Assembly: GCA_008632985.1 (NCBI GenBank)
Contig: QPGO01000190.1
Span: 1-64,000, forward strand
Length of the DNA: 64,000 nt
Source of the DNA: Psammoneis japonica
Taxonomy: Eukaryota
Direction: 5' to 3'
In this document: positions 36,752 to 64,000 of the stretch, piece by piece
Position numbering within the stretch: position 1 is the first letter of the stretch
How the letters are laid out: each line of letters starts with the position of its first letter
Position numbers and translations under genes: made by a program
Notes under the pieces: model-generated
What the model was told of the DNA's origin: nothing
What the model saw: the letters and a program-made list of their open reading frames with translations, nothing else
Database searches by the model: none

Positions 36752-36755
<4 letters not shown>

Positions 36756-36793
<38 letters not shown>
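36756..36793. repeat. (CT)n microsatellite
   Basis: Uninterrupted ctctct run. Confidence 0.95.
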
Positions 36794-36798
<5 letters not shown>

Positions 36799-40575: not shown

Positions 40576-43500
40576 ATTTTTTAGAGCGGGACCAGCAATC
40601 GTCGAGACACTACGTACAGGCATCTCATAGGTTTCCTGCTCCACCAGAAATTACACCAAAATTGACCAGCAGAGATTCGTGACGCAAGGTGGTTAATGGG
40701 CTTGGATCTGAAGCTCCTACAAGAGATGTCAAACTGATGCTCGTCATGACTCATGGAGGATGCAACGGTAAAACTTCATGACAGTGCCATCGCGTGGGAT
40801 CCAACATGGCCTCGTGAACTGGACGTCAACGTAGGACGGTGCATTTCTCTGAACGACATTCTTGAGTGAAGCGAGCCGGTGAGTTTAGCATCGTTGCACC
40901 CAGTTCGCTGCTCGTAATCCCTGCGGGAGAACTCAAGGGTGGCACATTCTGGATCTTCTGCTTCGACCTGGAGGCCTGAAGGACATATTTTTTTCTTGAC
41001 GCTGAAAGGTCATCTCGACTCGTGCAACCGGCAGAGAGCCTTTGCGGGATCGACAAAATACACGAAAGAACTGACGAGCGACAGAAAACAGCTTTTCAGC
41101 AACCTCAAACCGATGCTCTTCTTTTGCTTTTTGATCAAGTTCTGCAGTTGTACTTCTATTTCTAAAACCAACATGGACTTAATATTCTAAGACCAAACAT
41201 GGCTGCTATCCTTCACGACTTGTTGACTCATCGGTACGTACGCCATTGTGCACTCCGCATTTTTTGGGGGGGGCAGGATGTCGTCAGTCCGTCGCTTCTC
41301 CGTCAATTTGAACAATCGCTGTAGGTGGCATGTGGTCAGTTGACTAGATTGTAAAGAACAACATGGCCAATCAAACCAGGTTGCTTTCTCTAGGGCTGAG
41401 TGCTTTTCTGGGGGCTGAAAAGCTCTGCAGCCAATCACCTGACTTTTCGAAAAACTCACTCCAAAGAACCCCTCATCTGGCTGGGATGCCAACAATCTGG
41501 TGCTGGGTCTGTGACCGCCTGTGCTGCAATCCGGGCATTTCCTGACTGCATCCCAGACAAGTGTCTCTCATTGAGTCAGGTGTTCTTTTTAATTTCAGTT
41601 CAGAACCAATTTGGTCTACAGGCTCCTTGATTCTAAATTGCACCCTGGAGCCTGCTTTGACCAGCGGCCATTCTTGCCTCTGCAGCCCCACGTTTGGCCT
41701 TTCTTGATCATTGTGTTTGGTCGCTCCTTCATTTCATCTCATGCTGCATGTGATGCAACATCAGCACCTGAAATGTCCTTCTAAATTGCATCCATTTGCA
41801 GCCCAACAAACAGCATGGTAAGTTTCTCATTGTCACAATGAAGCAATTGCAGTCAAAGCAAAACCATGAGACTTGGCAGCCTGCGCACCTTTGCTTCCTG
41901 TTGCAACATTCCTGAGGTCTGAAAGCTTGGGGAAGAATCTCTGCAGCTGTTGTTTCTCTCTCAAATCATCTGCCAAGGGAAGGCCAAAGGATGCCATTGT
42001 GAACAAGTGTCTGGATGACTTGCCTGGCATCAAATGAACAGAAGGGACCTTTGCTTGGCATCAAACAGCTGCTGAATGCAGCGGACCTTTGCTTGGTGTC
42101 AAACAAATGCAACCACCTGTGCTCAGTGTTGAAGAATGAATGTGATGTGCCTTTGCTCAGGATTGAATGAACATGGTGCACCTTTGCTGGGGATCAAATG
42201 AGTGCCTCACTTTGCTCAGCATCAAACGAATGTGACAGACCTTTGCTCAGAGTCAAATGAGTTGAATTTGAATTTCACAATGGAGCTTCACAAACACACT
42301 TTGCAGTCACTTGGCTCTTCATCTCATCCTTGTTCTTTTCACTTCAAGAACTCTAAAATCAGCACTTTGTCAAACCCAGACTGGATCAGGATGACACATT
42401 GTTTTTGGCAAAGTTCATGCCTGCAACTGGAGGCACTTCTTTTTATGAAAAAAATCAAAACACTCTTGGCAAATGAGTTTAGAGAGCTGGATAAAAGATC
42501 ATGCAACAGCAGCAGAAAAGTTGGTGCACAAACACCAGATGTGTGTCTTGGGGAAACAATGAAGTTTCTGTTTGCTCTGACTTTTCTGGATCACTGAAAC
42601 TCAGGAAGCTTTGGAAGACACTGGACAGAATGGGGCGGGGCTTCCATTTTCAAAAAACAGTGAAAGCACTTGCATGCTCTTTTGTCTGCTGTGGCTTTGA
42701 CTGTTTCATCAATTTGCCTGTCACCAATCAATTGTTCAACACAACAATTGCTGGCAAGTGCCAGTGCCCCATGGACTTTTGACAACAGAATCAAGCAACT
42801 TCAATCTTTGAGCACATGGCTCTGCCCTCTCCAGCAGGGAGCACTGCAGCTTGAGAAACCTGCAGCATCAGCTGCACACACCAACAAAAGCAAAGCAGGA
42901 GTGGCCCTGTGCTCTCTGAATCTTGCCACTGGGGTCCCACAGGAGCTGTTTCTGTCATCCAAAGAACCATTCATTGTGCACGACTTCATGTCCTCAAGTG
43001 GAGTTTCAAGATTTTGCAAAGTTTGCTGTCACATCCAGCACAAAATGTCAACTAAAATGCATGCAAACTGTCTCTTTCCTCATGCATTGCCAGCTCTCAA
43101 ACTCATTGGTGTGATGGAGCATTTTGACATGGTTGCCCCATTTCACCCACTGGAAGAACCAACATTTCACACTCCTTTGTTGCTTGTTCATCTCAAAGAT
43201 GTGCTCCACTTTTGCAAAAAAATCATCATCATCAAGTCCTTCCCTGATGAGGGCTTTGATTGCTCCATTGCTGAACTTCATGTTGGTCCTGCATTTGACA
43301 CAACACAGAGCTTGTTCACAAAAGCAGTTTTGTGGCTTTGTTTTGTGAGCATTTGTCAGTCATCAGTGCCACATCATCTCAATGGGCAGCAGCAGGCTCT
43401 GCAGGGTGCTTTGCCACCTCCGGGCACAAGTGCAACCTTGTCATCTTGGTGCCTCAGTGATGAAGGATGAAATTTCATCTCAGGCTGAAAGCTCAACTTG

Positions 43501-45733
43501 GTGCTGGTCTTCTTGGAGTGTGAGAACTTGTGACTTTTGTCACCTCTGCTGCTGGCAGCAACCACAACTTTGGCCTTGGTCTCCAGGCATTTGGCATTCA
43601 TCAACTGTGTGAGGCCAGTTTCTGCAAGCACTGAGTGCAGCACTGGCAACTCTTTGGAGTGAATGTTGAACCCACAAGCGCCAGTGTTCCCAAAAAGGAA
43701 TCCTGTCAGGCTTTGTGTGCCTCTTGACACACTTGTCTTGGTTGGTGGCAGTGGCTGTGGTGTGATGAAAGTTGTCAATGTAAACTTCAATCTTGCGGTG
43801 CACAACAGGTGCCCAGTGATGCCAAATGACAAACCAAATGATTCCATCCAAAGAGCAAGATGAAGCTGAAAGGTGAGAGATCAGCAATGGTGAAACTTTT
43901 CCCGGTGGTGGGTTGAGGGGGTTGCCCATGGTGCATGAAAGATGCAAAGGCTTCAGACTTTCTTCTTGTCAGCTGCTCACAGCAGTTGTGAAACAGCAGA
44001 AAATGAAAACTTGCAAGTGTGTGTGGCAAGAGTGAGCACCACATGGTGATGGGGCATTGGCAGACAGGGCAACAAGCAGCGGCCTCTGCCAGCCAGTGGT
44101 TGTGAAGCAGCAGCACAGCACTCACCAAGGAGGGGACACTGCATCAGTTGTGGGGCTGCCCAGCAGCAGGGCCATCTGTGTGGCACCATCAAAGCAGCAG
44201 CAAAAATCACCAGACATCCCCACATGTTCCACCAACAAGTCCATCTGAGAGCAGGTGTTTGTTGCAACATCTCAGTGACCATGTCAACATCAGACCATTT
44301 GAAGGCCAACAGCTGGGTTTTTGATGACTCAGTCAGGTCAAGGAGGACAAAGCAGTCTGTTGGGACAAATGCATGCTTTCTCTGCTTCCACCTTCTCAGT
44401 TTGCTTTTGCAGCCCAAGAGCTCAGGCTCACAGCACAGCAAGAAAATGAGGCCACTTCAGATGTGAGGAGTTGTTGAGGCAGAGGGGCAATGTCAACAAA
44501 AAAGAGCTCTGGGGTGTCATGTTTTGGTGCAGGCTTGCACTGCCATTGCACAAGCTGTGCTGCTGCCTTTGGAAGTCAAAACTGTTGAAACAGCAGCATT
44601 TTTGGGCAATCTGGGAGCAGCCATGATCACAGTTGGCATCAACGGCTTTTTAGTTGCTTGACATGACATCACTTGAAAGTTGCAGTGTGCTCACTGTCAT
44701 GACAACAAAGGCAAAGCTTCCCTTGGCTGCACATGGTGTGTGCACCTTGCTTGTGCACAACAAACATTGCTGACAATTGTCAACCTCACAAGGAGCACAC
44801 ATGCCCTGCATTGAGATGCACCCCCAGTCCTTTGCAAGGGTGCAGTTTTGTGGCTTGTGTTCATTTGCTGTGCAGCTGTTGCTCTTGCACTCATGCATCA
44901 GTCTTCATCACAGAGCCAACAGGCTTCAGGCTTTCATGCCTGTTGTGGCCTGATGCTTGCAGCAACAGTTGTTTCCTTTGCTGAAATGGGGTGGTTGGTG
45001 CTGCACCACTGCACTTCAATTCAACGGCATCAAAATGAGAGACAAATCAACATCTGAGGCCATTTGCCCAGTTTTTGATCACTTGCACTAAAAGGGTGTC
45101 ATTTGCTCTCAACTCAAACACCACTTTCTCATCTGCTGAGCTGCTGTTTGTGTGTTGGTGCAGCTGGACTGGCTGCATGTGCTGTCAAGCCAATTTTCTG
45201 CCTCAATGGCAAGCTCTTCTTTTTCCCATTGCTTGCCAGTCAGACTTGAAAATTTGAGAACAACAGCCACCTTTGGCACATCTCCATCAACTGGAGGGGG
45301 GCAAGACAGGGGGCATCACGCTTTTTTCACTGTCCCAAGAACTGGTCAGATGGTTGTGACAGAGAAGAAGTGCCCATTTGATGGCAGGCACATGCTGCTT
45401 TGCCTTTGGCACACATCTGCTGGGCTGCACTTTTTTCTGGCAATGTTGGCACACTTTCAAGGGCAGCAACATCTGCTCTGCCAATGAAGGCCCCCAGCAC
45501 CTTCTAAAAAGGCAGCTCTCAAACATGCACAATCTTTCCTGCATCAAGCATTGGGTGGCTTGGTGGAAGGCAAACCAGCTGCAAAACAAAAATGGCTCAG
45601 AGCATTGCCAACTGCAGAAGAGCCTCAAATGCACAAAACTTTTTGTTGTCAAGCTTTTTTGTTAAATCCCAACTGCTTTTGTTCTTTTCAGAATGAAGTC
45701 CAGTGTGCACATCTCTGCACTTTGTTGCCATGC

Positions 45734-46443
45734 NNNNNNNNNNNNNNNNNNNNNNNNNNNNNNNNNNNNNNNNNNNNNNNNNNNNNNNNNNNNNNNNNNN
45801 NNNNNNNNNNNNNNNNNNNNNNNNNNNNNNNNNNNNNNNNNNNNNNNNNNNNNNNNNNNNNNNNNNNNNNNNNNNNNNNNNNNNNNNNNNNNNNNNNNNN
45901 NNNNNNNNNNNNNNNNNNNNNNNNNNNNNNNNNNNNNNNNNNNNNNNNNNNNNNNNNNNNNNNNNNNNNNNNNNNNNNNNNNNNNNNNNNNNNNNNNNNN
46001 NNNNNNNNNNNNNNNNNNNNNNNNNNNNNNNNNNNNNNNNNNNNNNNNNNNNNNNNNNNNNNNNNNNNNNNNNNNNNNNNNNNNNNNNNNNNNNNNNNNN
46101 NNNNNNNNNNNNNNNNNNNNNNNNNNNNNNNNNNNNNNNNNNNNNNNNNNNNNNNNNNNNNNNNNNNNNNNNNNNNNNNNNNNNNNNNNNNNNNNNNNNN
46201 NNNNNNNNNNNNNNNNNNNNNNNNNNNNNNNNNNNNNNNNNNNNNNNNNNNNNNNNNNNNNNNNNNNNNNNNNNNNNNNNNNNNNNNNNNNNNNNNNNNN
46301 NNNNNNNNNNNNNNNNNNNNNNNNNNNNNNNNNNNNNNNNNNNNNNNNNNNNNNNNNNNNNNNNNNNNNNNNNNNNNNNNNNNNNNNNNNNNNNNNNNNN
46401 NNNNNNNNNNNNNNNNNNNNNNNNNNNNNNNNNNNNNNNNNNN
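45734..46443. other. Assembly gap (710 N)
   Basis: Run of n. Confidence 1.
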
Positions 46444-46449
46444 TGTGAT

Positions 46450-46660
46450 CCTTGTGAAGAGTCCCCACCCTTGGTTTCCCAAGTTTTGGTTGTGGATTTT
46501 TCATTCTTGATTTTGGTGTGAATTGCTCAAAATTGCAGTTGACAATGTTCCGCCATCACAGAGAATGTGCAGAGGCTTGTTCTTTGCTTTGCCCAAAGAG
46601 GTGCTCACATGAGTGATGACTGCTGGACTGGTGTGAATTGCTTTTTTGGGGCTTCCCAAT
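46450..46660 (-). mobile_element. Degenerate retropepsin-like aspartic protease fragment, probably from a Ty3/Gypsy LTR retrotransposon
   Basis: TSLGKAKNKPLHILCDGGTLSTAIL followed by KSTTKTWETKGG resembles the ILxDSG protease motif and flap; abuts the gap. Confidence 0.5.
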
Positions 46661-49600
46661 GTCCAGCAGTGCGCAAGACTCCTCGAGCAGCGCCAGTTCA
46701 GAATCACTGCACATCACAAGAAGTGGATGTGGTGGTGCTGTTGAAAATTCTCCAGCCAATCTTGTTCAATGCAACTGGGAGAGTCTGCTTGCATGTCTGG
46801 GCAGTTGAGGCTTGGAAGCAGTTGGAATTGATTTGTCAAGACAAAGAAAAAGCACTTCCAAGATTGCTGCAATCAGCTCACAAGTGTTTTGAAATGGCGG
46901 AGGGTTTGTGGCAGGGTTGTCCCAGAAGAAATTTCCAAGAAAGGAGATGGGTTGGCACAGATGCCAATGACACCTGGAAGAAAGAGAGGAACAAGTTGTT
47001 GGCAGCACTGTCAATGGAAGGTGTCAAGAAACATTGGCTTGTCTCAAAAGACCTGTGCTGGCAATTTGCACTGGGATTCACAATTGTCCATTTTGGCCAA
47101 GGAGGCACTGCAGGTGTTGGACACAGGCAGGGCCAACAAAAAACCTGAGGGCACAAGTCTTGTGCAAAATGAGAAGAAACAGCTCAAATGCAAAAGGTTG
47201 GGCATGTGAAAAAGGACTGTCCTTTGCTCAATGACAACAGCGATCATTTGTTGGTGGAGACACATGACATCAGCTGTGGAGAGAAACAAGGCAGTCAATG
47301 TGGCGCTGGATGGCATGGTTTTCAAGTGTTGCCCTCCTGCAGCCAGTGTGCATGAGGCCAATCCATTGATGGTGGCTTGTGCAAAGGAGTGTGTTGGAAC
47401 ATTGGGGAGCAAGGCAGTTTTCGACAATTGTGGATGAGGTGAAGTTGCACTCACATGAACTTTTGGTGAGTTGTGGGTCTTGTGCTCACTTTTCAGCTTT
47501 TGCACCTGCTGGCCAACATGGCAACAGTGGCAGCGGCAATGGAAATGCGGTGTTTGCAATCCACATGCGGCAAGTTTGGGGATCAGCGAGACCAAGTGTG
47601 TGCCACATTCAGCAAGCTGTGGAATCACAGCACCGCTGCAAGACCCCCCTCTGAAGTTTTTTTTGGCACAACAGGCTCCTGCAAAAGGTCAAAAGTGCCC
47701 ACAAGTGGCCAATCAAGGTCCCACACAGAAAGCATGCAGGTCCAAGGAAAGGAAGCCATTCTGAACATTTTGGCCCAGTGTCACAAGGCCAATCTCAAAG
47801 CCACCAACAGCTGTTCATTTTCACTGTTCCATGCTGAAATTCACATGTGTGGTGCGTCGTCCACAAAAAGGCTGCCCCCACACTTGGAAACCAAAAAGGC
47901 ATTTTCTGTGCTTGTCATGAGAGAAAAAAAACATGATGCTGTTGGTGCGCACACACTTCTTGATGCAGACAATGCTGTCTTGCACCTTGATCAATGGTGC
48001 GACAACCAACACATGATCAAAGAACAAGCCCCATGGCAGAAGATGCAGCATCATTGTTTGTTGTGCAATGTGCATTGCATTGGGCACAATTTCAAGTTGT
48101 GACATCATGCACCATGGAAATTTGTGGCTTTTTGTGCAGTGATGAAGCACAGCACAGTGAACTTGACACCTGCCAAGAAAACAGCAAGCATGCAAGAACT
48201 GCACGTGAGCCCCTCAACTTGCCAGGATGTGGTGGTGCAAAGTGCTCAAAGTTGCCACAAGGATGTTCAGATTCTCAGCTTGCCAAAGTGAGGTGACTTT
48301 GCCAAATCTGACCTGCCAACCACCTGGAGAGGCCAGGTGCCACCCTGTCCTCTTCTTGAACAACTCTGAGCTAAAGCCTGCCAGCCAACATGCAAAGGAA
48401 AAAGTTGAGAAGGCTGGGTGGTTGTCTGCCAGGGAGTCTGAGCATCTGATGGCTCAATTGCACAGATGCACCTGCTGCTTGGCTGCTTTAAAAAAGAAAG
48501 AGCTGTGCAGAAACAAGTGTGAGACAATGAGCATGCTTTTGCGAGATTCTTGCTGGCAATGGCACATGTGCCATGCTGGCAGACACACCAGACAACTTGT
48601 CAATCTGCAGAAAAATGCAGCAATTGGCAAAAGCGCGCCACTCACAAGTGTGCTTGTTTTGTTTGGCAATGGGGCCTGGATTTGACTTCATTCTAGAGTT
48701 CCCCAATTTTGCAGCAGAGCTGCAGAAAGTCTCTCCCACACACACACCAGATGACTTGTTCATTGAACAAAGCAAAGCAAGGGATTTTTTTTCTGACAGA
48801 GTGGCAAAATCATGCTCAACAGGAGCAAAAAAAAGATCCACATGTCTCTCTTTCTTTTTCAACACAGACAAAACCAACAAAAAAGAGGGTGCTGCAGTGT
48901 GGCAGTCACCAAGCAAACAATTTTGCAAAAAGTGTCTCCAAAGAAAGTCTGTTGGGCCTTGTTTGAGCTTTTGAGCAAGGGGGGCTCTGGGGGGCACAAT
49001 GCAGCAAGAGAAGCAGAGCTGGTTGGAGGCAGCATGATGATGTGTGTTGTGCAAGCAAGTTTGAGTGGTGGACCTTTCCCCAATTTTTGTTGCTTCTTTT
49101 CTCATGTCTGATCATTTTAAAGTGCTTGAGCAGTGTGAACAATCTTCAAAAGGTGGTCATTTTTTCCTGAAAACAAAGTGACAGGAACAAGCTGCTGTGT
49201 GGCTGCCACTGGTTTTGCTGCCTCTTGGAGCCATTTTTTTTGTCTCTTCTGCTGCATTTGGCTGTTTTTAACAAGAAATGTCAGCATTTTTTACAGTGCA
49301 ACAAGGAGCTCAGATGCAAAAAAGTGACTTTCTAACTGAAGTCATTTGGACAGAACAATCAGGAGAGCTGAGTTTTGCTTTTTTTGGCGCACACCATTGG
49401 CTGTCAGAAAGACCAAGTGGTGGTTCGCTGACCTGTGTGGGAGTCTTGTGGGTGATCTGCATGCTGGCATTGAAAAAAGTTTGTTGACTGTGAAGCAACT
49501 GTGCAATGTGAAAGACAGCAGAAGAGGTGACAACAAAATGTTGACAAATTTCAATGCTTGGAAAAGAAGTTTTGTCTCAGACAAGTGAAGCAAAATGGCC

Positions 49601-49802
49601 ACAACATCTGGACATTGCCAATGTTTTTCATCTGGCTTGCAACATTGGACACTTGTTGCACTTGCCCACGGCATTTTGGTTGTCATGCACCACCAAAGCT
49701 GAGTGCAAAATCTCTCTTTTTTGTTTGCACAAAAAAATTGATGTCATCCATGACAGCACAATGCAAAAAATGTGCAAGTGCATGAGCCACCAAGACACTC
49801 TC

Positions 49803-49803
49803 C

Positions 49804-49834
<31 letters not shown>

Positions 49835-49995
49835 GATGTTGATGATGTTGATGATGACGATGATGTTTGCAGCTGGTGCCAAGTTGACAGAGACAAGGGT
49901 TGTGAAGAGAAATCTAAAGGAGTTCCAGAAAGAAAGACACCAAGCATGCAAACATCAGCGAGCTCTCCACAAAACAAAACAAAACAAAACAAAAC
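49803..49995. repeat. (GTT)n/(GAT)n microsatellite at 49803-49866 and (CAAAA)n at ~49969-49995
   Basis: Direct reading. Confidence 0.9.
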
Positions 49996-51084
49996 CACAA
50001 AGAGCAACTCAAATTGCAGCCAAATGACCAAGTGGGCTGCAGCCTTGGGCTGTTGACCTGTCTTAGAAAATGAAAGTTGCCTTCTCACCTTGGTTGCAAC
50101 AGCTGTTGGTTCATAAATGGCAGGGTTCATGGCAGCAGCATGGTGCATTTTGGTGTGTGCAACTTGCAACTTGAGTCACACAAAACACATCATCTTCATT
50201 TTGGAGCTCAGCAGTTTTCTTGCGCGGGTTTGGCACCAAACATGATGCAGAACACACAGAAACAAACCAAAAACCTCATGATTCATTCTAAAGTTTCTCA
50301 TTTGGAGATCTGTCTGCCCCAGCAGTGGTGAGCTGCAAGTGGCACAATGCCAGCAAATGGCAGTTCCATGCACAAGCACTGGCCAACCTTTGCGAGACTG
50401 GAGGGCTTTGTTGTTTTGCAGCCACGTTTCTGTGCGAATGTTGGCACAACAAAGTTTGTAAAAATGCCCAGCTGATTGACAAAAACATTGCACACTGCAC
50501 TCAAAAGTGTGCTGGCTGGCACAACTGCTGTTGCATTGGATGTTTGCAGGCACTCAGCACACAAGAAAGAGAGGCAAGTTTGGCGCCAATGTTGGCTCCT
50601 CCTGTCATGGTGGTGAGTTCCCCCACCCAAGCAACCATGGGCTGCTTTGACTGGCAATCATCATGATTTTGCCTCAATCCAAGTTCCAAAGACACACGCC
50701 ATCAAACACACACTGGAAACCTGCCTCTGTTGTGTGGGGCGGGGAAGACCTCACAACAAGAATGGCTTGGCTCCGGCAGATCTGATTCACAATGAGGATG
50801 AGAGGATCCATTTGCCCTTGACAGACAACTGAAGTGACCACTGCAATGGTGGCGACAATGTGTTTCAAAGAGTCAAATGGCAATTTTGTGTGCTTTGTGC
50901 AACAACAACTGAGCAAAGTTTGTCCAGGGTTCAAATGGCACGAGCTCCGAACTCCCGAGACTTCCTTCCTGCAGCTGGATCGCACAACAACAGCGCTGCG
51001 GTCAGCAAGCAAGACAATGACGATGGTGCTTCTGTGTCGCGACGACGACTCTTTGTCTCTTCCTCGGCGACAAACTCATCTATC

Positions 51085-51360: not shown

Positions 51361-51404
51361 ACGCAAGGTCATCTTCAACGCATGGAACTTCGTTTTCATC
51401 CTTG

Positions 51405-52045: not shown

Positions 52046-53644
52046 GATGCTTTCTGTTGAACGGACGCATGTGCCAATTTGTTGTTGCACGCTGCTCATC
52101 GTTGTTCAGTGCTAAATTTGTCCAAGCACTTTGCAAACTCCACTTCCAATTCAGAAACTGCTTCAACTCCAATGCAGCCACAAACCGGCACAGACAGCAA
52201 CAAGAAGCCATCATGTTCGCCTCCACCCAAACAATTGTGGCGCATCAAGACACAGCAAGAATGTGTGCGACCCTCTTTTCCGTCAAGAGTTTTCCAATTG
52301 CCATTCTTTTTGTCGTCATGGGTTGTGGGCAGTCTGGCACGATTTTGCTTTAAAATGCGGCGCCCGTGTTCAACCAAACCCCTTGTTGCTGAGCACGACC
52401 TTGGACAAACACATCTTCCACAATGGCAGTTGCGGCTTCTGTTTCAGATGGATCTTCGCTCGCGTCGGAAAAGCTCTTGACAAGGGCGTCCTGAAGTGGT
52501 TTGGGCAAGTTCCGGTTGCCGCGAACGCAAAGCATGCCGTTGGCACGCTCACGCAACAATGACGGGCATCATCGGCAATGGCAACCAAGTCCTGCACGTG
52601 TGTCTTGCTGTTCTGAGGCACAGCCTGTGTCGTCAATGGCGTCAGCACAAGGCGACAATGGACAGGCGTCGGCAAAGTGTCGAGTGAGGTGTGCAGCATC
52701 ACCCGATCTGACTCAAGCAACACCTTCAAGGACGCGTCCTCCTCGGCACCAAATGATTTGTAACTGGCCGCGAGCTTCTTGGGACACTTTTTTGTCCTTT
52801 GTCGGGTCCTCAACGATTGTTGACATTCTGATGGAGACCGCCCTTGAGATTGTCGACCAAGCCTGAAACGGGCCTGGTGGATTCGTGCGGCACATGAGAT
52901 GCTTGATGCTGATGGTCGCAACCTGTTTGGCAATCTTTGGACAAAGTGGACGCTCTTAACCAACAACCTGGCACTCAACAATGGTCTTGGTTACCTCACT
53001 TGCACTGTCAGCGGATGATTGCAAGTGGACGATGTGAAATCGAGTTTTCAAAAGCGCGAAAGAGATGTTCTGATTGTGGTGCGTTTTCTAATTTTTGTTT
53101 TGTTTTCACAATCTTGATCTGTGGGCCTGACACTCCACAGTGTGCCAACTAAATCCCTCTCGAGCCCCAGTCCCAGTCCCACACCCCCATGCCTGCCATG
53201 CTAAACCCAACAATCCATGAGCTTCTACCTTGCACGCAAAACGCCCGTCTAATGTTTGTTTCTCGTTTTCTCATTCTATTCCGCCAGTCCTGCAATGGTT
53301 TTCGACTTGAACATTGGAACAAGTGTTGCTGCTGTTCAACATTGGCTTTCAGAGGCGATCTAGATCTTGCATTCTCTTCAACCGGTGTACAAAACCAGCT
53401 CCGAAACGGCGGCCAACTCACATGTGTCCTCTTGACAATGCGTGCCTCAATGCGAGATCTGGACAGCCTCTTCCAACTTTGCTGCTGCAGTTTAAACTCG
53501 AGTGCCAAGATGCAAGTGAATGCACACCACAAGCTGACATCTGAAACAATTTCTGCCCAACACGTCTTCACGACAATGCAGGCCTGAACGAAAAATAAGA
53601 TGTGCAACCACAGACGATCTTCTCCACCCGCAACAGCAAAAAAC

Positions 53645-55220
53645 TCAGCCTCGTCGCACTCCCTGCAACTCGGGAGCCGGACATTCCTCCAGGTGCTTGT
53701 CAATCGTCTGCCTCTCGCTCCCATCCACACATTTAATGTCGCAATGCGCCACGAGATCATCATCAAAGTAAACCCAGAGAATCTTGGCCAATGCACGAGT
53801 GTTGTTGCGGCAGCAATGCACGTCTTGGCCCTTCTCGTACTTGGACGTCGGTTTTTTGGGGGCGGGAGATAGATTCTTTTCTTCTGTCTGTCGCTCTCTG
53901 CCATTGGAGAAGAGGACAGTGTAGTGCGGAGTTTTGTCGTCAAGGTGAATGCCAATGATCTTGGCAGAAGCGACGTCGTTGGCATTGCTGTTCGTGTGCT
54001 TGACGTTCTCGCCGACTTTGCACTGGGGCTTTGGAGGGCTCGGCTTGTGAGGCGATGCTTCAATGTCGTCGTTTTCTGACGTTGGTGTTTTTGGGATGGG
54101 CGACAGATTCTTTTCAACCGTCTGCCTCTCTCTGTTGTTAGAGAAGAGGACAGTGTAGTGTGGAGTTTTGTCGTCGCGGTGAATGCTGATGATTTTGGCA
54201 GAAGCGACATCGTTTGCATTGTTGTTCGTGTGCATGACGTTCTCGCTGATTTTGCACTGGTGCTTTTGAGGGCTCGGCTTGGGAGGCGATGCTGCGATGT
54301 CGTCTTTTTCTGACGTTGGTGTTTTTGGGATGGGCGATAGATTCTTTTCAACCATCTGCCTCTCTCTGTCATTAGAGAAGAGGACAGTGTAGTGCAGAGT
54401 TTTGTCGTCAAGGTGAGTGCCAATGATCTTGGCAGAAGCAACGTCGTTGGCATTGCTGTTCGTGTGCAAAACTCTCTCACCGACTTTGCACTGGTGCTTT
54501 GGAGGGCTCGGCTTGACAGGTGAAGCTTGGACATTGTCTTTTTTTGGTTTGACGTTGTGGTGGTGCTTCGGAAGGCTCGGCTTGGGAGGTGAAGCTTTGA
54601 CGTTGTCTTTTTCTTTAAAATCGACGGAGGGTGGGGGGTTGTAGTTTGAAGACGGCTCGTGAGCCACTCCACTGTTGGAAGCAGTGCCGTTGGCAGAGCT
54701 GAACGCAAGAAATGGAACATCAAAGAAAGAAGGTGACGTTAGAAGCAAGCGTCACAACAATGGGCAGCACAACAAGAGCAACAAAAACTTGCGATGCAAA
54801 TGGCTCATTGACGTCGTAACGATGCGTCTTGCGTTGCGCCTCCACAAAGTGGCTGCGACAAACGTGGGGAGGCTGGTTAAATTCAGAACAATTCCACCTT
54901 GTCTGCTTGGGCAATGCCGTAGCAAGGATCGTACAGAGCCAGAGGAGAAATGCAACCACAAAGGTTTGGACGACGATCCAGACGTCGATGTTCCTCAACA
55001 AGCAACACAAGACGAAGCAGAGCACCGCGCACACTGGGAACTCTTTAGGATCCCTGCGCAGGCAAGAAATGGCTCGGCCATAGTTGCCAATGAGAAACAA
55101 AGCGTTCAAGAAGAGGAAAGCGCACAACATGGTGACATTGTTGATGCGACACTTTACTTTCTTGCCAGAACTGCGATTGTGAGACGAAGAAAGCACGTGG
55201 GAAAGTGCGTGCTTGCGCAT
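53645..55220 (-). pseudogene. Relic gene with N-terminal membrane segment and three 234-bp (78 aa) repeats plus a diverged fourth of a Tudor/SH3-like module
   Basis: CKVGENVKHTNSNANDVASAKIIGIHLDDKTPHYTVLFSNGRERQTEEKNLSP x3; fourth unit YEKGQDVHCCRN...AKILWVYFDDDLVAHCDIKCVDGSERQTIDKHL; fold is inferred. Confidence 0.65.
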
Positions 55221-56189
55221 TTCAGATTTTCATGTGCAGGGAATCGTGTCCGCGAAGTGGCAAGTTGGTTTTGACACAATTTAAACCGGTGCTGGGTTTG
55301 ATCCAAGTGATCATCTCGAACCCAAACTCAGAATGCCGCTGCAATCTTCATCGTCATGGCCACAGCGCTTTTTCTTTGCTCGTTTGCTCCTGACGCAACT
55401 TCGCCACAAGTTTGTGAGGCAACAAATCTGTGTCGTGCTTTCCGTTGACATGCACATGAAAGACACATTGTACATTGATTGTGGGGCTGTTGATGGACAA
55501 AATTTTTGTGCTGTTGATTGATCGCTTTTTCGCACGTGCTGCCCTGCCAGCACCTGACCGCACCACAAGACCATGGTCAACACTTTGCTGCTGCGGTCCG
55601 GAATCTCTCTCTTGGCAAAACCACCTGACACCCTTGCTTTGCAATCGCCAGGGGATCGCTGGAAATGACTGTGTCTGGTTTTTTCTCAGATGACCTGCAT
55701 CCTGTGCAAGGTGGCTCGTGGAGTGAGTTCCATGCTCTTTGTCCAGCCAGGATGCCAGGAACTCGTGCAATCTGCACGCAATGGTTTCGATCATGCAAGA
55801 GCTTCAGAACCATCCCGATCACATGGAGATCAGCTTCCAGTCAGAAGAACATTCAAGTCTCCAGATCTGGGGATCTTTCTGAACATGGTTCCACAATCTC
55901 CATGGATTGGCTGCTTGTGCGACGTTGCTTGCTTTGACGGCATCTCCTGTTGCGAGCATGCTGTCAATGCAAAGCTTTGTGGATTCTTTGGATTCTGCTG
56001 TTGTTGACCCAACAACAGGGTCTCATGATTTGACCACTGCACATTGCACCAGTTGCTCAACTTTGTGGAACGAAAAGACCCAGAAACTGGAAATGTCGCT
56101 TTTGATGCTGTTCGGACAGGCATTTTTCGAGATGGGAATGTGGTGCAGTTTGACCCCTTGTCTCCTGCAACGGAACAACCAACATGAGG

Positions 56190-56700
56190 TGCCTCTGCCT
56201 CCTCCCAAAGGTCCAGGTGGATTGCAGCTGCAGCACCTGAACGGGGCACTGCGTGGCTTCGGATTTGCCCTTTCGGTCATTTTAATTCTTCTTTCCATTG
56301 CATTTGGGGTCTGAACCATCCGCTGCAGAATGGGCAGAGTCATCAAGGCGTCACAGCCCATTTTCTTGCTTTCAACATGTGGCGGTGTCTTGTCAATGGG
56401 GTGGGTCATTCTGTGTGATGCTGCAGCCATCTGTGTTTTGCCGCATTGAGTGAAGACAGGGCTCGTGCAATGTTTCCATTGCGCACTCTTGTTTGTGTTG
56501 TTGAGGTTGGCCATCATTCCTTGATTTCAACATCAAAATTGAGAGCAAAGCGAGATGGATGAGATGTTTCTTCTCAAAGCACACCTTGGCTGTTCATCCT
56601 TGGTTTCATTCTTGCGCCAATGGTCGCTCTCCTGCTTGTTGATGCGGAGACGCTCACAATTTCAATGGGATGGATCTCTTGGCATGGGAGCATGGGCCAC
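56190..56700 (+). pseudogene. Class C (GABA-B-like) GPCR 7TM relic
   Basis: HLNGALRGFGFALSVILILLSIAFGV*TIRCRMGRVIKASQPIFLLSTCGGVLSMG matches the TM1-TM2 pattern WTxxxRxxxVIKASQPxFL. Confidence 0.7.
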
Positions 56701-56989
56701 TCCAAATGGATGTGTGTGGGCAGACAGTGGAGACAGGAGGAGCCAGCAAGTCTGACTTGTTTGAAGGGTGCGTGTCTGTGCCAGCCATTGCCAAACACAA
56801 GTGAATTGGCAGCAGGGCTTCCCATGTCATCCGGGATGTGGGCAAAACTTTTGTCACTTCTCTCAAATCTTGCGAGTGAGTTTTCAAGTGTTCTGCAACA
56901 GGCAAAGTGGAGAGGAGTGCTTTTCAAGTGCAGAGGAAGTGTGGATTCATTCCAGTTGAGTTTGCCCTGGGCCCGTCTCTTGATCTAGA

Positions 56990-57560
56990 GAGTGCAGCCA
57001 AGGCTGACCCCGAAACCTTTTCTGAACATCTGTTTGGATCTGCCAGTCGCAGTGATGATGTGCACAAAGATTTTGGATGGAAATCAATTGGGATGCTGAA
57101 AGCAATGATTGGGCAGGCTGCAGGAGGGATGGTGGCTGGGACACAACAAGCAGCAGTGATGACATGGTCGAGAACCATCACATTGAGAGCACTTTGGATC
57201 AAAATGTCAAGGAAATGAACAAAGAATGCAGTGCCAAAGGAATTGAATGTTGCTGCACATTTTCCAATCTTAGAGGAGATGTGACTTTGATTGCACCTCG
57301 CCAGAGGAGTCTGTCTCCATTGCTCAGAACATTGGATTCGCGCATCTTGCCAAATGTGTTGAGCAGAGATCCTCAGAAGAGGCAGGAGAGCTGAAGTCTT
57401 TGGTTGCAAGAGAGTGTGATGAGATGCCAATGAAGCACAGGGGCTCAAATCAACTGGCATTCCTGTCCACAACAAATGACTTGGTGGTTCATTTTTGCAT
57501 TTCCAACTGGAGCAACTTTCAAAGTGTTGCCACTGTGAAGCATTCTGTCTGGCATTGGAA
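56990..57560 (+). pseudogene. Relic of an uncharacterised family (DUF6940-like, recalled from memory)
   Basis: ADPETFSEH, TFSNLRGDVTLIAP, AHLAK, FLST, LGGSFLHFQLEQLSKCCHCEAF follow the pattern FxNLGGDAxLIAP...HLA...WLST.GLGV.WLHxRLD..PKYY. Confidence 0.5.
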
Positions 57561-60500
57561 TCAGCAAGTGCGTGAGAAAATTTTGTTTGTTCAGCGGCGT
57601 GCTTCCATCTTGGCGTTGCTCGGTGACATCAGGCTTGTCTCAAACTAATTCACTGCATTTGAAAAGACATTGTTTGTTGTCGGAAATCAGGAGATGTGCA
57701 ACATCCAAGGCAGGAAATCAAGAAGGGTTTCGGGGCAGCGGGGGTGGTGGCTTGCATGCAGAGGAGAACAAGATTTGCTGGAGAAGGAGGCACTGGATGT
57801 TTGTGGTGTCCGTGTGTTGGGAACATCACTGTGGTTAGATGCCGCAGTGCAGGCCGAAATGTCAATGAATGAGCAGCGCGCTTTGTCATTCACCCAAACG
57901 GACGACGGCACAGAGCTTCAAAATTGTCAGCAAAAAAGAAACAATTCAATGGTGTCGAGAAAATCTGCAGTGGTTGCGGGATGAATTGGTTGAGGCACCG
58001 CATGAAGGGATTCTCACCACATGCCTCAATTGGAAGGGACTGGCCATCCCAGGTGTGATGTTGCTTTTCATCCGATTTGACCGAGCTCCTCTCATTCCCA
58101 ATCAGTCTCCAGAAATGTGGTCACACCTGCTTTAATTTCATTGGAAACACACGTCCACTCTCCAACCAGTGGGGTTGTAAAGCCCATGAGAAGCCTGGTC
58201 ATTGTACAGATGGTTTGGTGGTTGGAATCACCAAACCCCAGTGCTGTTGGGGAGGAGACAATGAGTGTGCTGACAGGATTGGAGGTGAAGTTCAGCAGGC
58301 ATGGTCAAGCTCAGTGCATCCATTCTGGTTCTGATGTCATGTTGGCTTCTGTGTTGCACATCCTGACTGGGCAATCATCAAGAGATGCTCTTGGAAACTG
58401 GATGCATCATGTGCCTCATGGCGCAACTTCTTCAAACATCTTGCTGCCAACTGAGTGCTGTGCGCAGCTCTTGCCCAAGCCCATGGCATCGGCACACCCG
58501 GCATTTGACCAGATAAATCCATTGGACAAACAGCGTTGCAATCTCATTGACCGCACTTCATGAGCATCCAAGTTTTGTGCCAAAGCCACCACAACATCAG
58601 CTTGCACCTGTGTCTGTTCCATCATTTCTACATCGGCTGTGAGGTTCTTGTCATTGCCCATGATGGAGGCCCCTGACTCTGTGCCACAGTCACATGACAA
58701 GGCTTGCTTCATTTTGAAGTTGGCGACCATGATTTCTTCCACCCAAATGACATTTGATCTTCTGACAGCCAACCACATTTGGCTTTTTGCCTTTCCTGAT
58801 CTGTTCTGGGGTGCCACCATTGTCTTCCTCATTTCATGCCACCTTTGCTTTGGACATCTCCCTCCTTTTGTCCAAAAGAAGCATCAACAAGGCCCCCCAC
58901 TTCAGCAGCAACATCAGCTCCACTCATGGCAGGTTGTTCAGATCCACCTGAGCAGATTTGTCAGATTCAAATGCCAGCAAAACTCCCTCTAGTTGCAGCA
59001 GGGTTGTGACTTTTGTTGAGCACCAGGGAAGAGCACAGCTGGGTGAGGAGCATTCCTGCTCCTGTCAAACTGGCAAGGTGCGCCATGAACAGCTCCAACC
59101 CATTTGGGTGCAGCTGCTGGGGCACAAGAGCAATTTTTTCATCCTGCTCCCAAAGTGCATGGCCTGCTTGCGGGCTGGCAGCAGGCGAGGTTGACCCAAC
59201 TTTGGGTCAACCCACACAGCAGCAGTTGTGCAGATTGGCACATCTTTCAAAGGTTTGCACTGCTTGGATGTGACAAAATTGGTGCCAGCAGCACCACAAG
59301 CATCAGGGCACAAGCCCAGGTTGTTCTTGGCAGCCATGCTGTCAGCAGCTCCAGCTGACAAAATGGAGTGGATGAGTGCTCACCAAGAGTTGTTTGCCTG
59401 AAAACATTGTGTGGTCCAAGCTGCTGGTTTGGACAGCAATGATCTTGAGCCACTGTTCAGCAAGCAACCCTGGATTGCACACAGCAAGGCTGCCATTCTG
59501 CATGTCTGCAGACTGGCTCACAGGGGCAGCTGATCATGCAGAAGCACCTTGCAAGCCTGATGTTGCACACATGAGTTTCATGCAGGAAAGTCATGACCCA
59601 GCTGTTCATCCTGCAATTGGCACATCTTGCACAAAGGGGTGGCTTTGCAGAAGATGCACAGTGTCAAATGTGGGCTCAAGCTCTGCAGCATGTTTTGCTG
59701 CCCCATGCATGTGAGTTGTGCACAGAGTGATCTTGCAACTTCCATGGCACTGAACTCACATGTCACTGCCTGAGTGGTTGGACCCCATTCCTGTGCAGGT
59801 GGCAGCAATGTTGCCCCATGCAAGTGCAAAATTGTGTGTTTGCCAAGAGGGGAGCAAAGAGCAAAATTGCAGCGGCACTGCTCATGCAGTTGAGAGTGCA
59901 CACAATCATTTTTCAGAACCTTTGCCCCACTCAACAAAATGGCAGTGATGTGCTGCAACCTCACACATGTCAGCACAAGATGACAAAAATTCCAAGATTC
60001 AACTCATTTGACACAAACATGCTGCAGATGCTGCATTTCACACAACCAGCTGGAGAGACGTTGAAGCCAGCTGTGAGGCACAATGTCATGTTCAAAACTT
60101 TGTGACTGCCAACATGGCAGCAAATTGAGTGACTGAAACAGCTTGGGCACATGCACCAAATGGCTGAAGCAGAAAGGGGCTCACCTGAAAAAAATTTGAG
60201 ACACTGCTGCTGGCACATTTTTGACATTGCCAGGGGGTGTGGGCTGGACAAGACTTTCCTAGAAAGGCCATTGAGTGGCTCTTTCTAGAGCCAATGCTCA
60301 TGTTCTGATGCAAAACATTGGCTCTGCAGTGCACAGTTGTTTCACACAGAAGACATGCTGGTGCTGCTTCAGCATGCACGCAAGCATGCAGCAACTGTGA
60401 TCAAGGTGTGGCACATCAAACAAAAAGCCCAGATGTGATGCACAGCAAGAGCAGCTGTGCACACTTTTGCTTGAGCAAGAGATGTTGCTTGATGAAATGC

Positions 60501-63500
60501 TCAGAAGGTGCAAATCAAAACAACACAAAACATGAGAAATGGTTGTGCCATGAAGTCAACAGGCTCTTGCTCTGAAAGAGGAGGACCACTCAGCCACCCA
60601 GAACAGGCTGCAGACCACTTTGTTTGTGAGTGACTTCAGAGAAAAGAGCAAATGGATTGTGCAGATGCTTCAAAAATGCGGGGCAAAACAAACACTTGTG
60701 ACTGACAACATGGGCTCCAAGTGACATGCTGTGTTGTTCCCAACAACATGAAGAGAGACTCCAACAGGTGGACAAACTCCAACTGCAAAAAAGCTCACTG
60801 CTTTGTCAAATGTTTGATGTGAAGGAGAAACAACATGCTGTGAGAGCAGAACATGTTCAGTTTTGTCCTTTGCCCAGAAAGCAAAAACCAATTTGCTCAG
60901 ATGACAAGGGGAAAATTTTGGCTTGCACATGTTTGGGATGAGGGCACACATGATGAAAAAGCTCATCAGAACCTGCAACAAAAAGGTCAACTGACCTCAG
61001 GACAATTTCCAGATGTGCCAGCCATGGCCCACTTCAAGTTTTTTGCACAGCATGCAATCCCAGATGGGGTGCAGCGGATCATGCCAAGGCCCGTGCAAGC
61101 CTGTGCAGTTGGCTGCTTGAGTTCCACACAAACAAGTCATGACCCAACTGGACATTGTGCAAAACTGGCACAACTTGCATGAAGGGTGGCACAGAAGCTG
61201 CACAGCACCAAAAGCAGCCATTGTTGCACAGGCAGGAGCTCAAGCTTGCGCAGAGTGTTCTTGCAATTTCCACAAAATGCTGGACTTTCCATCACGACCC
61301 AATTGCCCAGACCCTGCTCCTGTGCTTGGGTGCAACCATTCATTCCTCAGCCAGAGATTTCTTGCAAGCCTTGTGCCCAAACTGGGTGCCTGTGCAAGCT
61401 TCTTGCTTTCCTGTGCACTTCATGCACAGCTCTTCTGAGTCCTTGGACTTGGCCTTCAGCTTGGCATTGGCTTGAGCAGGTTGCTCAATGTCAGCTGCTT
61501 TTTCCACAGTGTGGACCTCATTGTCAGACTTTTTTTGTGACAGCGGCCTTGTGTTTGTGTGCTGTCTTCTGCTCCTCACTCACACAGCTTGTTGGTTTGG
61601 TCTTGCCCTTTTCCATTGAGAGTGCGCCAATGCACTTTCTGCACTTGCTGATGTTTTTCCACATGAAATGCAGTCTTGCACAAAGGCAACTCAGCATTGC
61701 TTCTCTCAGCATTTCACACCACCAGAGCTTCAATGTGTGTCACTGCCACCACTCACAGAACAGCACTTGTGCACAGATTGCTGCTGGAAACTGTGCTGAA
61801 AGAGGTCACTTTGCAATGCACCAGCAAACCCAGCGCTGCCAGAAGGCTCCCAAGTGTCTGCTCAGAATGAGCAAGCCAGTGGAAAAGACCAAGAACTTCC
61901 CTGGCTTCTTCAAGAGTGTCTCTGACACCTTGTTGGAAACTGGCAAGAGCACAGAGGATGCTGGATGATGGATGGCAGGTGTTCCTGTGTTTGTGTTTGA
62001 GTGTGCACCATGGGCTGTGCAGAGAAAAAACATGGTTTGAAGGGCTGCGGGGCCTCAGAATGTGGCAAGAAGGGCAAAGGCCAGATGCCAACTGTCAGGT
62101 GAGCACCACATGTTTGAAGAGTGTGCTGGATGTTCTTGGAGGATGCATCTTGCTTCTTCTGTCATTTGAGGTTTAGATTTTTGATTGATTGTGGCTGACC
62201 CTGACATGTGGATTTGTGCTGCAACACAACCACAGCAGACATGGTCACGAGCACCTTGAAATGCTGCTGGCATGTGTTGACTGTCAAACAACTCAATGAA
62301 GTCATGAAGGTCAAACCAGGCAGAGCCAAAGAACTGATGTGTCGTCTGGGATCAGACGTTGAGAAACTTGAAACCAAGGCCAAGCATTCTGCAGCAGAGT
62401 CAGCCCCAAACAGGAACAAACACAAGAGTGTGACAAACCATCATGTGGTTTGAGAAGCTGTTGCAGTGGGTGTCATGAAAGGAAGATGGTGAAACTTGGC
62501 GGACATTTTGACAAAATTGGAAACAAATCATGGACATTTTCTCTGTTGTTCAGTTTCAAGTTGGACTCTTGTGCTGTTTTGTCGTCCGAAAAACAGCCAC
62601 CCGCCCGTGCGTCGTGCGTCTGCACGTGTTCACAGCACGGATGCTTTCCTGACGTCATCCTCATTTTTCTGCTCGGCTTGCTCACATCTCACATTTTTTT
62701 GGTTGGCGCTCCTGGCGTCCCGTTCACATGAGGCGCCTTCTCACGTTTCTTGTTGTGCTGATCGTGACCTGCACAGTTCACTCCTTTTGTCCGAGTGACA
62801 ATGGAGACCCACGAATTGCTTTCACAAAGTCGCGGCTTGAAGCAATTCCGGATGGAACCACCGCTGCCCTAATCGTTTCCGAGGCTTTGGAAGCCTCCCG
62901 GACGTCCTTTTTCATTTGTTTTTTTGGTGCTTCCGGTGCTGCTGTCATTGCCAGAAGCGTGTGCAAAAGTGTGGTGGAGATTCAAGAGCTGAAAGATGTC
63001 GGACCGACTCTGGGAGGATGAGAGACGCAGCATGGTCGGGCGCTCTTGGCGCTCCTGCAAGAATTGGTGACACACTGTTTTGATCCGGGAGCATTGCAAG
63101 GTGTGTGCATGCACCCCCTGGTGGATGCTCATGTGTGTGCATTGCATGTCTTGTGGAAGAGCTGTTCTTCTGACGCTTCCCATTTTCCCTCTTCTTTGTT
63201 TTAAGCAGTTGTTCAAGGCGGCGTGGAAGAAAACAGAGACACTCTTGTAAAAGGAATGATGAACCATTTGTTTGCCGGATCGGAACGTGTTGGAAGTTGG
63301 AATGGCGAGCATGCTGCATGTTGCGCGTGAAAGTGGAGGAATTGCACACGTGTTAATCTTGCCAACTGCTCTTTTCTCTCTCACAAAGATTGAGCCGAGG
63401 AACACATCATTTGGGGCAAAACTTTCTATGTGGGACAAACGTCATGTAAATGGAGTTTTGGAATTTGAAAATGCTGTTCCTGTTGACTTTGAATTGCTGC

Positions 63501-63697
63501 TGTGGAACTCATTTCCATTTCTGTTTTTGTAACCAAAAATTAGCGCGTGGCTCCTGATTGCTTGTTGGTGCACGAAAAGCATGCAGACGCCTTGCTCAAG
63601 GAACTCCAGTCCACCAGGCGGTGGAACGGCACGTTTGTGGCTTAAAGAGCCGCATTGCACTGGCACATGCGCATCTCAACTCACTCCCTGTTTATCA

Positions 63698-64000
63698 TGG
63701 CAGTCTTTGTGGCCCTGAAAGTGGTGAAGAACAGTCAAGCTTGCACACAACAAGCAGCTGTGGAGATCAATGTCTTTGGGTGCTGAGTCAAGACAAGGAT
63801 TTCTTGGCCATTAACGTCAAAGCGAAAACCGCAAGATGTGCACCTGCAATCGTGCAGTCCGCATCAGAATCACCTTTGCTTGGTGTTTGAATTGTTGGGG
63901 ATGAACACATGAGAGGTTTTGAATCAGCGGCAGTTCAGAGGGTTGCCCTTGACAAAGGTTCGGCCGCTGCTCATGAAAACAACGGACGGCAGCGTGAAGG
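63698..64000 (+). pseudogene. Yak1/DYRK-family kinase fragment, copy 2 (runs off window end)
   Basis: Near-identical to 51405-51707; similarity between the copies begins at the same tggcagtctttgtggccctgaaagtgg. Confidence 0.9.

Follow-up and report, generated by a model that had tools for sequence, protein, structure and literature searches.

The window analysed here comprises 64,000 nucleotides (nt) of contig QPGO01000190.1 from the pennate diatom Psammoneis japonica. Its gene-dense core is flanked and interrupted by blocks that have lost nearly all of their TpA (TA) dinucleotides and, in some parts, their CpG (CG) dinucleotides as well, and this regional loss of TpA is the subject of the present analysis. 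A preliminary description made from the letters alone had read the blocks as the product of a genome-defence system resembling fungal repeat-induced point mutation (RIP). The features to which the text refers are the following, with dinucleotide contents given per kb or as observed/expected ratios (o/e) and with open reading frames abbreviated as ORFs:

1 to 2,200: left-edge block poor in TA and CG (o/e of TA 0.04-0.05, of CG 0.11-0.13, of TG/CA 1.8-2.1), continuing past the window end
14,600 to 16,500: island D, a TA-poor island of 1.9 kb in the gene-dense core, with partial CG loss and internal repeats of 108 nt and 294 nt
39,482 to 41,242, minus strand: last normal gene before the domain border; TA loss begins about 150 nt past its 5' end
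41,400 to 50,700: zone A1, TA and CG nearly gone (0-5 TA and 0-8 CG per 500 nt), without a recognisable coding relic
45,734 to 46,443: run of 710 N inside zone A1, either a gap in the assembly or withheld sequence
50,900 to 55,500: zone B1, TA-poor with normal CG (zones B1 and B2 together 8.7 TA and 51.3 CG per kb)
51,215 to 52,267, plus strand: pseudogene of a DYRK-like protein kinase, interrupted by frameshifts and by TGA and TAA stop codons, with AFG in place of DFG
51,405 to 51,707, plus strand: first copy of a duplicated stretch within the pseudogene, with its partner at 63,698-64,000
53,648 to 54,751, minus strand: ORF P0121 in zone B1, four Tudor-like repeats of about 78 amino acids (aa) encoded by a 234-nt tandem array
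55,500 to 58,000: zone C, TA absent and CG intermediate (2.0 TA and 26.4 CG per kb)
58,000 to 62,400: zone A2, TA and CG nearly gone
62,500 to 64,000: zone B2, TA-poor with normal CG, continuing past the window end
63,698 to 64,000, plus strand: second, 5'-truncated copy of the kinase pseudogene, matched by tblastn with residues 383-474 of the homologue P0123; the homology starts abruptly at 63,698

Dinucleotide composition was calculated per kb and in 1-kb windows. The gene-dense core (2.3-41 kb) served as the reference with 42.5 TA and 56.3 CG per kb, and the zones were delimited for this purpose as 41.5-50.7 kb, 58.0-62.4 kb and 1-2.1 kb (zone A), 50.9-55.5 kb and 62.5-64 kb (zone B), 55.5-58 kb (zone C), and 14.7-16.5 kb (island D). 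The 21,790 non-N bases of positions 41,501-64,000 contain 94 TA and 463 CG, where core density would predict about 926 and about 1,227. A TA o/e below 0.25 was found in all 81 of the 1-kb windows whose start lies at 41,500 or later (median 0.048) and in none of the 140 core windows (minimum 0.39). The o/e of TG and of CA in the depleted sequence is 1.8-2.2. Scanned per kb, positions 1-2,000 and 42,000 to the end gave a TA o/e of 0.00-0.10 and a TG/CA o/e of 1.5-2.3, as compared with a TA o/e of 0.45-0.96 and a CG o/e of about 1 in the core. The saturation of the blocks with TG and CA and the ordinary make-up of the core had both been reported in the preliminary description, and both were borne out.

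The contrast between the depleted domains and the remaining window is strong, and their borders (at about 2,200, 14,600, 16,500 and 41,400) are sharp, with the transition completed within about 100-200 nt; successive 500-nt segments from 40,501 onward contain 17, 14, 5, 4 and 0 TA. Counted in steps of 100 nt, TA number 0-1 in island D (about 14,600 to about 16,500) and 2-9 outside it. TpA is reduced to 2.9 per kb in zone A with a rise in CpA and TpG, and the GC content there is 0.475 as compared to 0.474 in the core (0.475-0.50 for the depleted zones overall).

To put these values into perspective, 80 eukaryotic metagenome loci fetched with the mevalonate-diphosphate decarboxylase (MVD) protein of the window were used as a control set (779,330 bases, 2,836 windows). 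A TA o/e of at most 0.43 together with a TG/CA o/e of at least 1.52 occurred in none of the 2,836 control windows and in 80 of the 247 windows of the present stretch. Seventeen control windows had a TA o/e below 0.25; they were located in three loci with 65-68% GC and had a TG/CA o/e of at most 1.09.

The loss of TA spans the whole domain, whereas CG loss is restricted to some blocks, CG amounting to 6.3 per kb in zone A, 51.3 in zone B, 26.4 in zone C, 37.8 in island D and 56.3 in the core. All blocks had previously been described as devoid of both dinucleotides. For TA this proved correct everywhere; for CG it does not apply to 50,901-55,500 and 62,501-64,000 (51.3 per kb), and it applies only partially to 55,501-58,000 and 14,701-16,500. 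Since the B zones have lost TA and kept CG, the loss of TA is separable from, and independent of, CpG decay. The B zones could be younger DNA on which a faster TA process has acted, or parts of the domain that are not methylated.

Because TAA and TAG have disappeared with TpA, only TGA is left as a stop codon and the ORFs are inflated: the 22.5-kb block contains 48 stop-to-stop ORFs of at least 130 aa, as compared to 55 in the 39.5 kb of 2,000-41,500, where real genes are located. Among the CpGs that survive in zone A, GCGC (21 occurrences, survival ratio 0.61) and GCGG (19 occurrences, 0.39) stand out from the other contexts (0.02-0.19), which may reflect a context preference of the methyltransferase or the recent creation of such sites.

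The pattern has arisen by mutation. Compared with the core, zone A has lost 39.6 TA and 50.1 CG per kb, together 89.7, and gained 90.0 TG+CA. The combined TA+CG loss and the TG+CA gain per kb are 38.8 and 40.1 in zone B, 70.4 and 63.6 in zone C, and 56.6 and 61.1 in island D. When TA and CG of the core were converted at random to TG or CA in silico, the change in all 16 dinucleotides was reproduced (r = 0.93 for zone A and 0.86 for zone B), as was the near-constant GC content. Repeats in the depleted zones differ by 18 TG<>CA doublets per 1,710 aligned nt and those in the core by 1 per 594, a count to which the 234-nt array contributes three pairings that depend on one another. Such a doublet is the outcome to be expected when an ancestral TA (or CG) is struck separately in each copy. 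Majority-rule polarisation of the tandem copies was uninformative (two 'TG>TA' and two 'CA>TA' versus one TA>TG and one TA>CA) because the majority state at a hypermutable site is itself derived.

Direction can be read from the kinase pseudogene in zone B1. The relic was matched to DYRK2 chains by phmmer (E-value 5.7e-6), and tblastn with P0123, the sole match among nine candidates when longer proteins were searched for homologues of a 67-aa kinase piece, aligned to three of its segments in different frames. As compared to DYRK2, three of four Tyr are changed and read C, H and C, and at the nine Tyr positions of P0123 the relic has Cys four times, His twice, and a stop codon, Phe and Tyr once each. 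On the sense strand, Cys results from TA>TG and His from TA>CA, and since the two alternate within ten codons, both strands were hit. The preliminary description had noticed Tyr read as Cys or His in several relics. This is confirmed for the kinase (three of four positions against DYRK2, six of nine against P0123) and, at a single position, for Tyr to Cys in the repeat unit of P0121. The motif QQRCFHSDR (51,332-51,358), which had been assigned to S28, falls in the section aligned with the N-terminal region of the DYRK-like kinase homologue, and the S28 identity is unsupported because the ORF containing the motif has no Pfam family. Likewise, KCCHC (57,522-57,536) had been listed as a recognisable relic, which it is not, since its ORF has no Pfam match.

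The second kinase copy lies 12.3 kb from the first, and the two are 96% identical over 302 aligned nt. They differ by three TG<>CA doublets, one TA<>TG, one CG<>TG, three other transitions and one transversion. At one of the doublets P0123 reads Ala-Tyr-Thr and the copies read GCT TGT GCA and GCT TGC ACA, which would fit derivation from an ancestral TATA. The duplicate thus records at least seven TpA hits versus four other differences, with about 13 TpA expected at core density. As a rough estimate from one 302-nt duplicate, this suggests a per-site rate at TpA that may be tens to about a hundred times the background. The direction A:T>G:C at TpA is accordingly indicated by the mass balance, the replacement of Tyr by Cys or His and the doublets, rather than by observed de novo mutations.

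A second nameable element of zone B1 is P0121. Repeats 1-3 share HYTVLF with the Tyr codon TAC kept and the fourth repeat reads HCDIKC, and the ratio of nonsynonymous to synonymous substitution rates (dN/dS) between repeats is 0.23-0.49. From these ratios and from the TA kept in the Tyr codon of three repeats we conclude that P0121 was under selection after the repeats arose. Its repeat unit is modelled as a four-strand barrel (pLDDT 73) with the SMN Tudor domain (TMq 0.66, at an E-value of only 0.06), the MRG15 chromo barrel and the SETDB1 Tudor domain as the best folds, and no sequence homologue was found among proteins of near length. Judged by the predicted fold, P0121 is a possible gene for a reader of methyl marks.

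The remaining contents of the depleted zones were searched with Pfam (E-value cut-off 0.05 for 150 ORFs and 0.01 for 56 ORFs). Of the 206 ORFs with a length of 70 aa or more, none contained a transposon or viral domain, and all matches were sub-threshold except DUF1918, which was matched by the ORF with the Tudor-like repeats. This negative result is weak because heavy mutation may hide older relics; the defence system that had been proposed nevertheless receives no support from it. Island D likewise has no ORF with a Pfam family above the curated cut-off, and its 206-aa ORF at 15,987-16,604 on the minus strand had no match among 1.84 billion representatives. The minus-strand ORFs of the island encode acidic 36-aa repeats and a hydrophobic N-terminal piece for which no homologues were found.

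The public sequencing run X1 was used to verify the letters of the assembly. It contains 64% of the words sampled from 38,000-45,400, and its 31-mer contigs cover 30 of 30 bins of 36,000-45,700. In the depleted part (41,708-45,700) the contigs differ from the assembly at 2 of 328, 7 of 387, 4 of 465 and 10 of 1,104 letters with a word depth of 77-115, and in the flanking gene at 15 of 1,561 letters with a depth of 90.6, so that differences amount to about 1% both inside and outside the depleted domain. The accuracy of the reads behind such deep and long 31-mer contigs can probably be relied on. Most of 41.5-45.7 kb has an X1 depth of 86-160 as compared to about 90 in the flanking gene, i.e. 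single-copy level, with the exception of 43,128-43,775 in zone A at about 5-fold depth. The description of the blocks as a repetitive domain is therefore not supported for most of the part in which it could be tested. Since the X1 contigs carry the same letters at single-copy depth, a base-calling artefact caused by modified bases is unlikely. A second run, X2, is cDNA-like and covers 15 of 30 bins, essentially those of the gene part; from the depleted part it contains only a short piece near 44.2 kb. A third run, X3, gave no coverage, and none of these coverages was taken as evidence on expression.

The order of TG and CA along five depleted stretches is random with regard to strand (runs test, z of -0.37, -0.36, -1.15, +0.40 and -0.85). 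The sequence context of the surviving TA is not: 57 of 109 are located in TTAA, CTAA or TTAG, as compared to 166 of 1,568 in the core (p = 1.9e-24), and each of zones A, B, C and D shows the bias on its own. No survivor is found in ATAT or GTAT and a single one in ATAC. Such a preference for flanking sequence points to an enzyme. As a palindrome, TpA shows the same change as A>G on one strand and as T>C on the other, so that the altered base is ambiguous. Island D, with 4.4 TA, 37.8 CG, 71.7 TG and 132.2 CA per kb, demonstrates that a unit of only 1.9 kb inside euchromatin can be a target of the TA process.

Taken together, the mass balance, the replaced Tyr codons, the doublets and the blocks with TA lost and CG kept uphold the earlier suggestion of a second process, T:A>C:G at TpA, besides CpG decay. 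We consider it probable, on balance, that two separable and regionally confined processes, TpA hypermutation and CpG decay, rewrote nuclear DNA of this pennate diatom. In the first process TpA would be converted to TpG or CpA, on either strand at random and near saturation throughout the domain including island D, at a rate well above background and faster than CpG decay, with TTAA and CTAA/TTAG relatively spared. The likeliest chemistry would be enzymatic deamination of adenine 3' of T by an ADAT2/TadA-type enzyme directed to silent chromatin. The second process would be CpG>TpG/CpA by deamination of 5-methylcytosine in DNA presumed to be methylated, and would affect some blocks only. A role of the TpA hypermutation in defence is conceivable.

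Several observations weigh against this interpretation. In zone A the two processes explain neither the deficit of ApT (51.4 observed versus 67.4 simulated per kb) nor the surplus of GpC (78.2 versus 58.5), a deviation that points to either a third process or a different ancestral composition. Island D has a one-strand bias (131 TG and 248 CA) that the random-strand picture does not predict: the whole TG/CA gain falls in CA on the plus strand, which means that on the minus strand alone TpA underwent A>G and CpG underwent C>T. The polarity of change depends on a protein homologue, on the doublets and on an assumed core-like ancestral composition. X1 may derive from the very sample that was assembled, and no platform is recorded for it. 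Only a pseudogene of a host-type kinase and a Tudor-like ORF can be named among the contents of the domain, and since no transposon or viral domain was found, a targeting of foreign DNA is unsupported. Finally, no TA-poor window was found in nine diatom-like metagenome contigs (L001-L009, about 80 kb, MVD 63-76% identical), although this says little on generality because the contigs are short and gene-dense. As a further observation on zone A, the trinucleotides present in excess are GCA/TGC, AGC/GCT and GCC/GGC.

Among the alternatives, the main rival to adenine deamination places the change on thymine: T before a 3' A would be enzymatically modified in silent DNA, e.g. to 5-hydroxymethyluracil (5hmU) by a TET/JBP-type hydroxylase, and would end up as C through mispairing or misrepair. 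The palindromic nature of TpA makes all of our results fit T>C equally. According to the available text of two articles, dinoflagellates, which like diatoms belong to the Stramenopila-Alveolata-Rhizaria (SAR) supergroup, make 5hmU by a TET/JBP homologue, the base marks and silences transposons, and older work on Crypthecodinium cohnii found T replaced preferentially in TA and TC (PMC11572971, PMC11071213). However, this is a modification and not a mutation, and base-resolution mapping in Breviolum, as far as the available text goes, gave no sequence preference and so did not reproduce the older report (PMC11071213). In our data TpC is reduced (52.4 versus 72.2 per kb) with no gain of CpC (43.8 versus 46.9), i.e. 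there is no signal of TC>CC. A strong mutagenicity of 5hmU towards C is an assumption, and no report of 5hmU in diatoms was met, though no search was aimed at it. We regard the thymine route as unlikely. A different question is the trigger. Instead of chromatin state, it might be the presence of a sequence in more than one copy, as for RIP in fungi, with some spill-over of mutation to adjacent DNA; such a trigger would fit either chemistry. Every TA-poor block with recognisable content does contain repeats (the kinase duplicate, the 234-nt array, the repeats of island D), and 43,128-43,775 is present at about 5-fold X1 depth. On the other hand, most of 41.5-45.7 kb is single-copy, the tandem repeats of the core at 38,451-38,755, 39,529-40,406 and 5,636-5,864 have normal TA, and so does a core family at a depth of 400-650 (37.0-39.9 kb). 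The evidence is thus mixed, and we consider a duplication trigger quite unlikely.

A further alternative dispenses with a dedicated enzyme. A replication or repair bias in heterochromatin, e.g. an over-active correction of T:G to G:C, could slowly convert TpA, and its predicted direction A:T>G:C matches the outcome. Very-short-patch repair is held responsible for the scarcity of CTAG in Escherichia coli. Such a bias is nevertheless improbable, given that TA is saturated (o/e 0.03) while the kinase copies diverge at 4 of 302 positions outside TA and CG, that the specificity for TpA is strict with a preference for flanking bases and borders sharp to about 100-200 nt, and that the rate in Bigelowiella natans is raised about 1000-fold and in some lines only, according to the available text of a preprint (bioRxiv 10.64898/2026.01.13.699255). 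Hyper-editing of RNA by an ADAR-type A-to-I enzyme followed by reverse transcription and re-insertion would accord with the preference of ADARs for a 5' U, as cited in the accessible part of the same preprint, and with the one-strand gain of island D. It is disfavoured and very improbable: in the main domain hits on the two strands are intermixed (Tyr is replaced now by Cys, now by His, and z of the runs test is about 0), the domain is 22 kb of contiguous and mostly non-coding DNA with sharp borders, no reverse transcriptase or retroelement domain was found among the 206 ORFs, and the hits after the duplication occurred in place. A last alternative is either the miscalling of modified bases or native foreign DNA that has always avoided TA and CG. 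Methylation-linked miscalls in long-read assemblies are known, and the platform of the assembly is not on record. Against miscalling, the X1 contigs carry the same letters at a depth of 77-115. Against a stable native composition, change over time is evident from the mass balance, from the loss of Tyr to Cys or His in the degenerate host-type kinase and from the doublets of TG and CA that separate the copies. In addition, none of the 2,836 control windows is alike. Either of them would be a highly improbable explanation.

TpA hypermutation together with CpG decay shares features with several known systems. The closest is the chlorarachniophyte B. natans, for which the available text of the preprint reports mutation-accumulation lines with 231 of 302 mutations in two integrated viral regions, one of a nucleocytoplasmic large DNA virus (NCLDV) and one of a virophage, 230 of these 231 being A>G or T>C and all at TpA, at a rate of about 6e-7 per site per generation in some lines only (bioRxiv 10.64898/2026.01.13.699255). 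The genome has 124 TpA-poor, CpA+TpG-rich clusters of 1-kb windows, and an ADAT2-like DNA adenine deaminase is proposed by the authors, who cite DNA editing by ADAT2 of amphioxus and trypanosomes (bioRxiv 10.64898/2026.01.13.699255). This signature answers the statement in the preliminary description that no mechanism of the kind had been described. In both organisms the change is A:T>G:C at TpA, confined to regions, and leaves TpA-poor, CpA+TpG-rich DNA. Judging from the part of the preprint available, they differ in lineage (Rhizaria versus a diatom, i.e. Stramenopila), in degree (a Rho of 0.45 in the NCLDV region versus a TA o/e of 0.03-0.05 over at least 22 kb here), in content (viral targets versus no viral or transposon Pfam family in 206 ORFs) and in that the rate was measured there and is inferred here. 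In the diatom, moreover, CpG loss joins TA loss in part of the domain, and the words 'diatom' and 'CpG' are absent from the text of the preprint.

With fungal RIP the diatom domain shares regional, dinucleotide-directed transitions, destroyed genes, unrecognisable sequence and sharp compositional blocks. The polarity is the opposite: RIP changes C:G>T:A (mostly CpA>TpA), creates TpA and lowers the GC content, whereas here TpA is destroyed and GC held. As to duplication, TA-poor blocks do hold duplicates and tandem arrays, most of 41.5-45.7 kb is single-copy, and repeated core sequences keep their TA. The term 'RIP-like' used earlier is therefore apt as an analogy, and not with regard to polarity or to a duplication trigger, which is not established. 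CpG decay by deamination of 5-methylcytosine resembles the block-wise CpG>TpG/CpA loss in zones A, C and part of D, which is balanced by the gain of TG+CA; zone A retains 6.3 CG per kb as compared with 56.3 in the core, and one CG<>TG separates the kinase copies. It explains the CG half only, given that the B zones keep 51.3 CG with 8.7 TA per kb. The edited A34 of tRNA follows U33. ADAT2/TadA and ADAR enzymes have in common with the TpA process an A>G outcome with a preference for a 5' U/T, and differ in that their known roles are on RNA and in that single-strand clusters in the style of ADAR are absent from the depleted stretches according to the runs test. Diatom transposons are CG-methylated through DNMT5a, with a part in transposon control, according to the available text of one article (PMC9998398).

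A more far-reaching hypothesis, which we put forward tentatively and hold to be possible but doubtful, is that TpA-directed editing or modification is an old trait shared across the SAR supergroup. It would constitute an irreversible second layer of silencing that is independent of cytosine methylation, acts on chromatin units down to 2 kb, spares TTAA and CTAA/TTAG and runs to completion in diatoms, where entire heterochromatic domains would thereby become free of TA. The trait would then span Rhizaria, Stramenopila and perhaps the 5hmU system of dinoflagellates. Host genes trapped in such domains might degenerate, as the kinase did, or be preserved by selection together with the Tyr codons that they need, as in the Tudor-like ORF.

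Full-text literature searches returned no report of TpA-specific regional hypermutation in a diatom or other stramenopile, and B. natans, in one 2026 preprint, was the only organism for which it was found in print. The present finding is therefore the same recently described kind of hypermutation in a new lineage and at saturation. The saturated footprint in a diatom places TpA hypermutation in a second lineage of supergroup level and suggests that it occurs widely in marine algae, perhaps as a common means of destroying unwanted DNA. The locus constrains the mechanism by a TA loss that is separable from CpG, random strands, spared TTAA/CTAA/TTAG, sharp borders beside an expressed gene and a 1.9-kb island targeted inside euchromatin. 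Diatoms include transformable model species in which candidate deaminases or hydroxylases could be knocked out. For genome annotation, TA-poor blocks defeat homology-based detection of repeats and genes, their inflated ORFs may cause over-calling by gene finders, and diatom annotations may mislabel such blocks.

A scan for tRNAs and an Rfam search at gathering thresholds, both over the entire window, detected nothing. An expressed multi-copy gene family without a Pfam family is located at 36,972-39,887, with an X1 word depth of 230-660 (neighbours about 90-100), internal tandem repeats of 152 nt and a normal TA content, and is therefore an example of repeated sequence without hypermutation. 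In the last normal gene before the border, at 39,482-41,242 on the minus strand, a cDNA-like X2 contig reveals two short introns: stretches of 107 nt and 88 nt are missing from it, and their CT..AC ends equal GT..AG on the minus strand. The core ORFs include an RsmB-type methyltransferase, topoisomerase VI-B, an Fe-hydrogenase and MVD. The last of these places the organism among the raphid pennate diatoms, its closest named matches being in Seminavis robusta and Haslea ostrearia (75-77% identity) and in Nitzschia (71-72%), with other matches of up to 81%.

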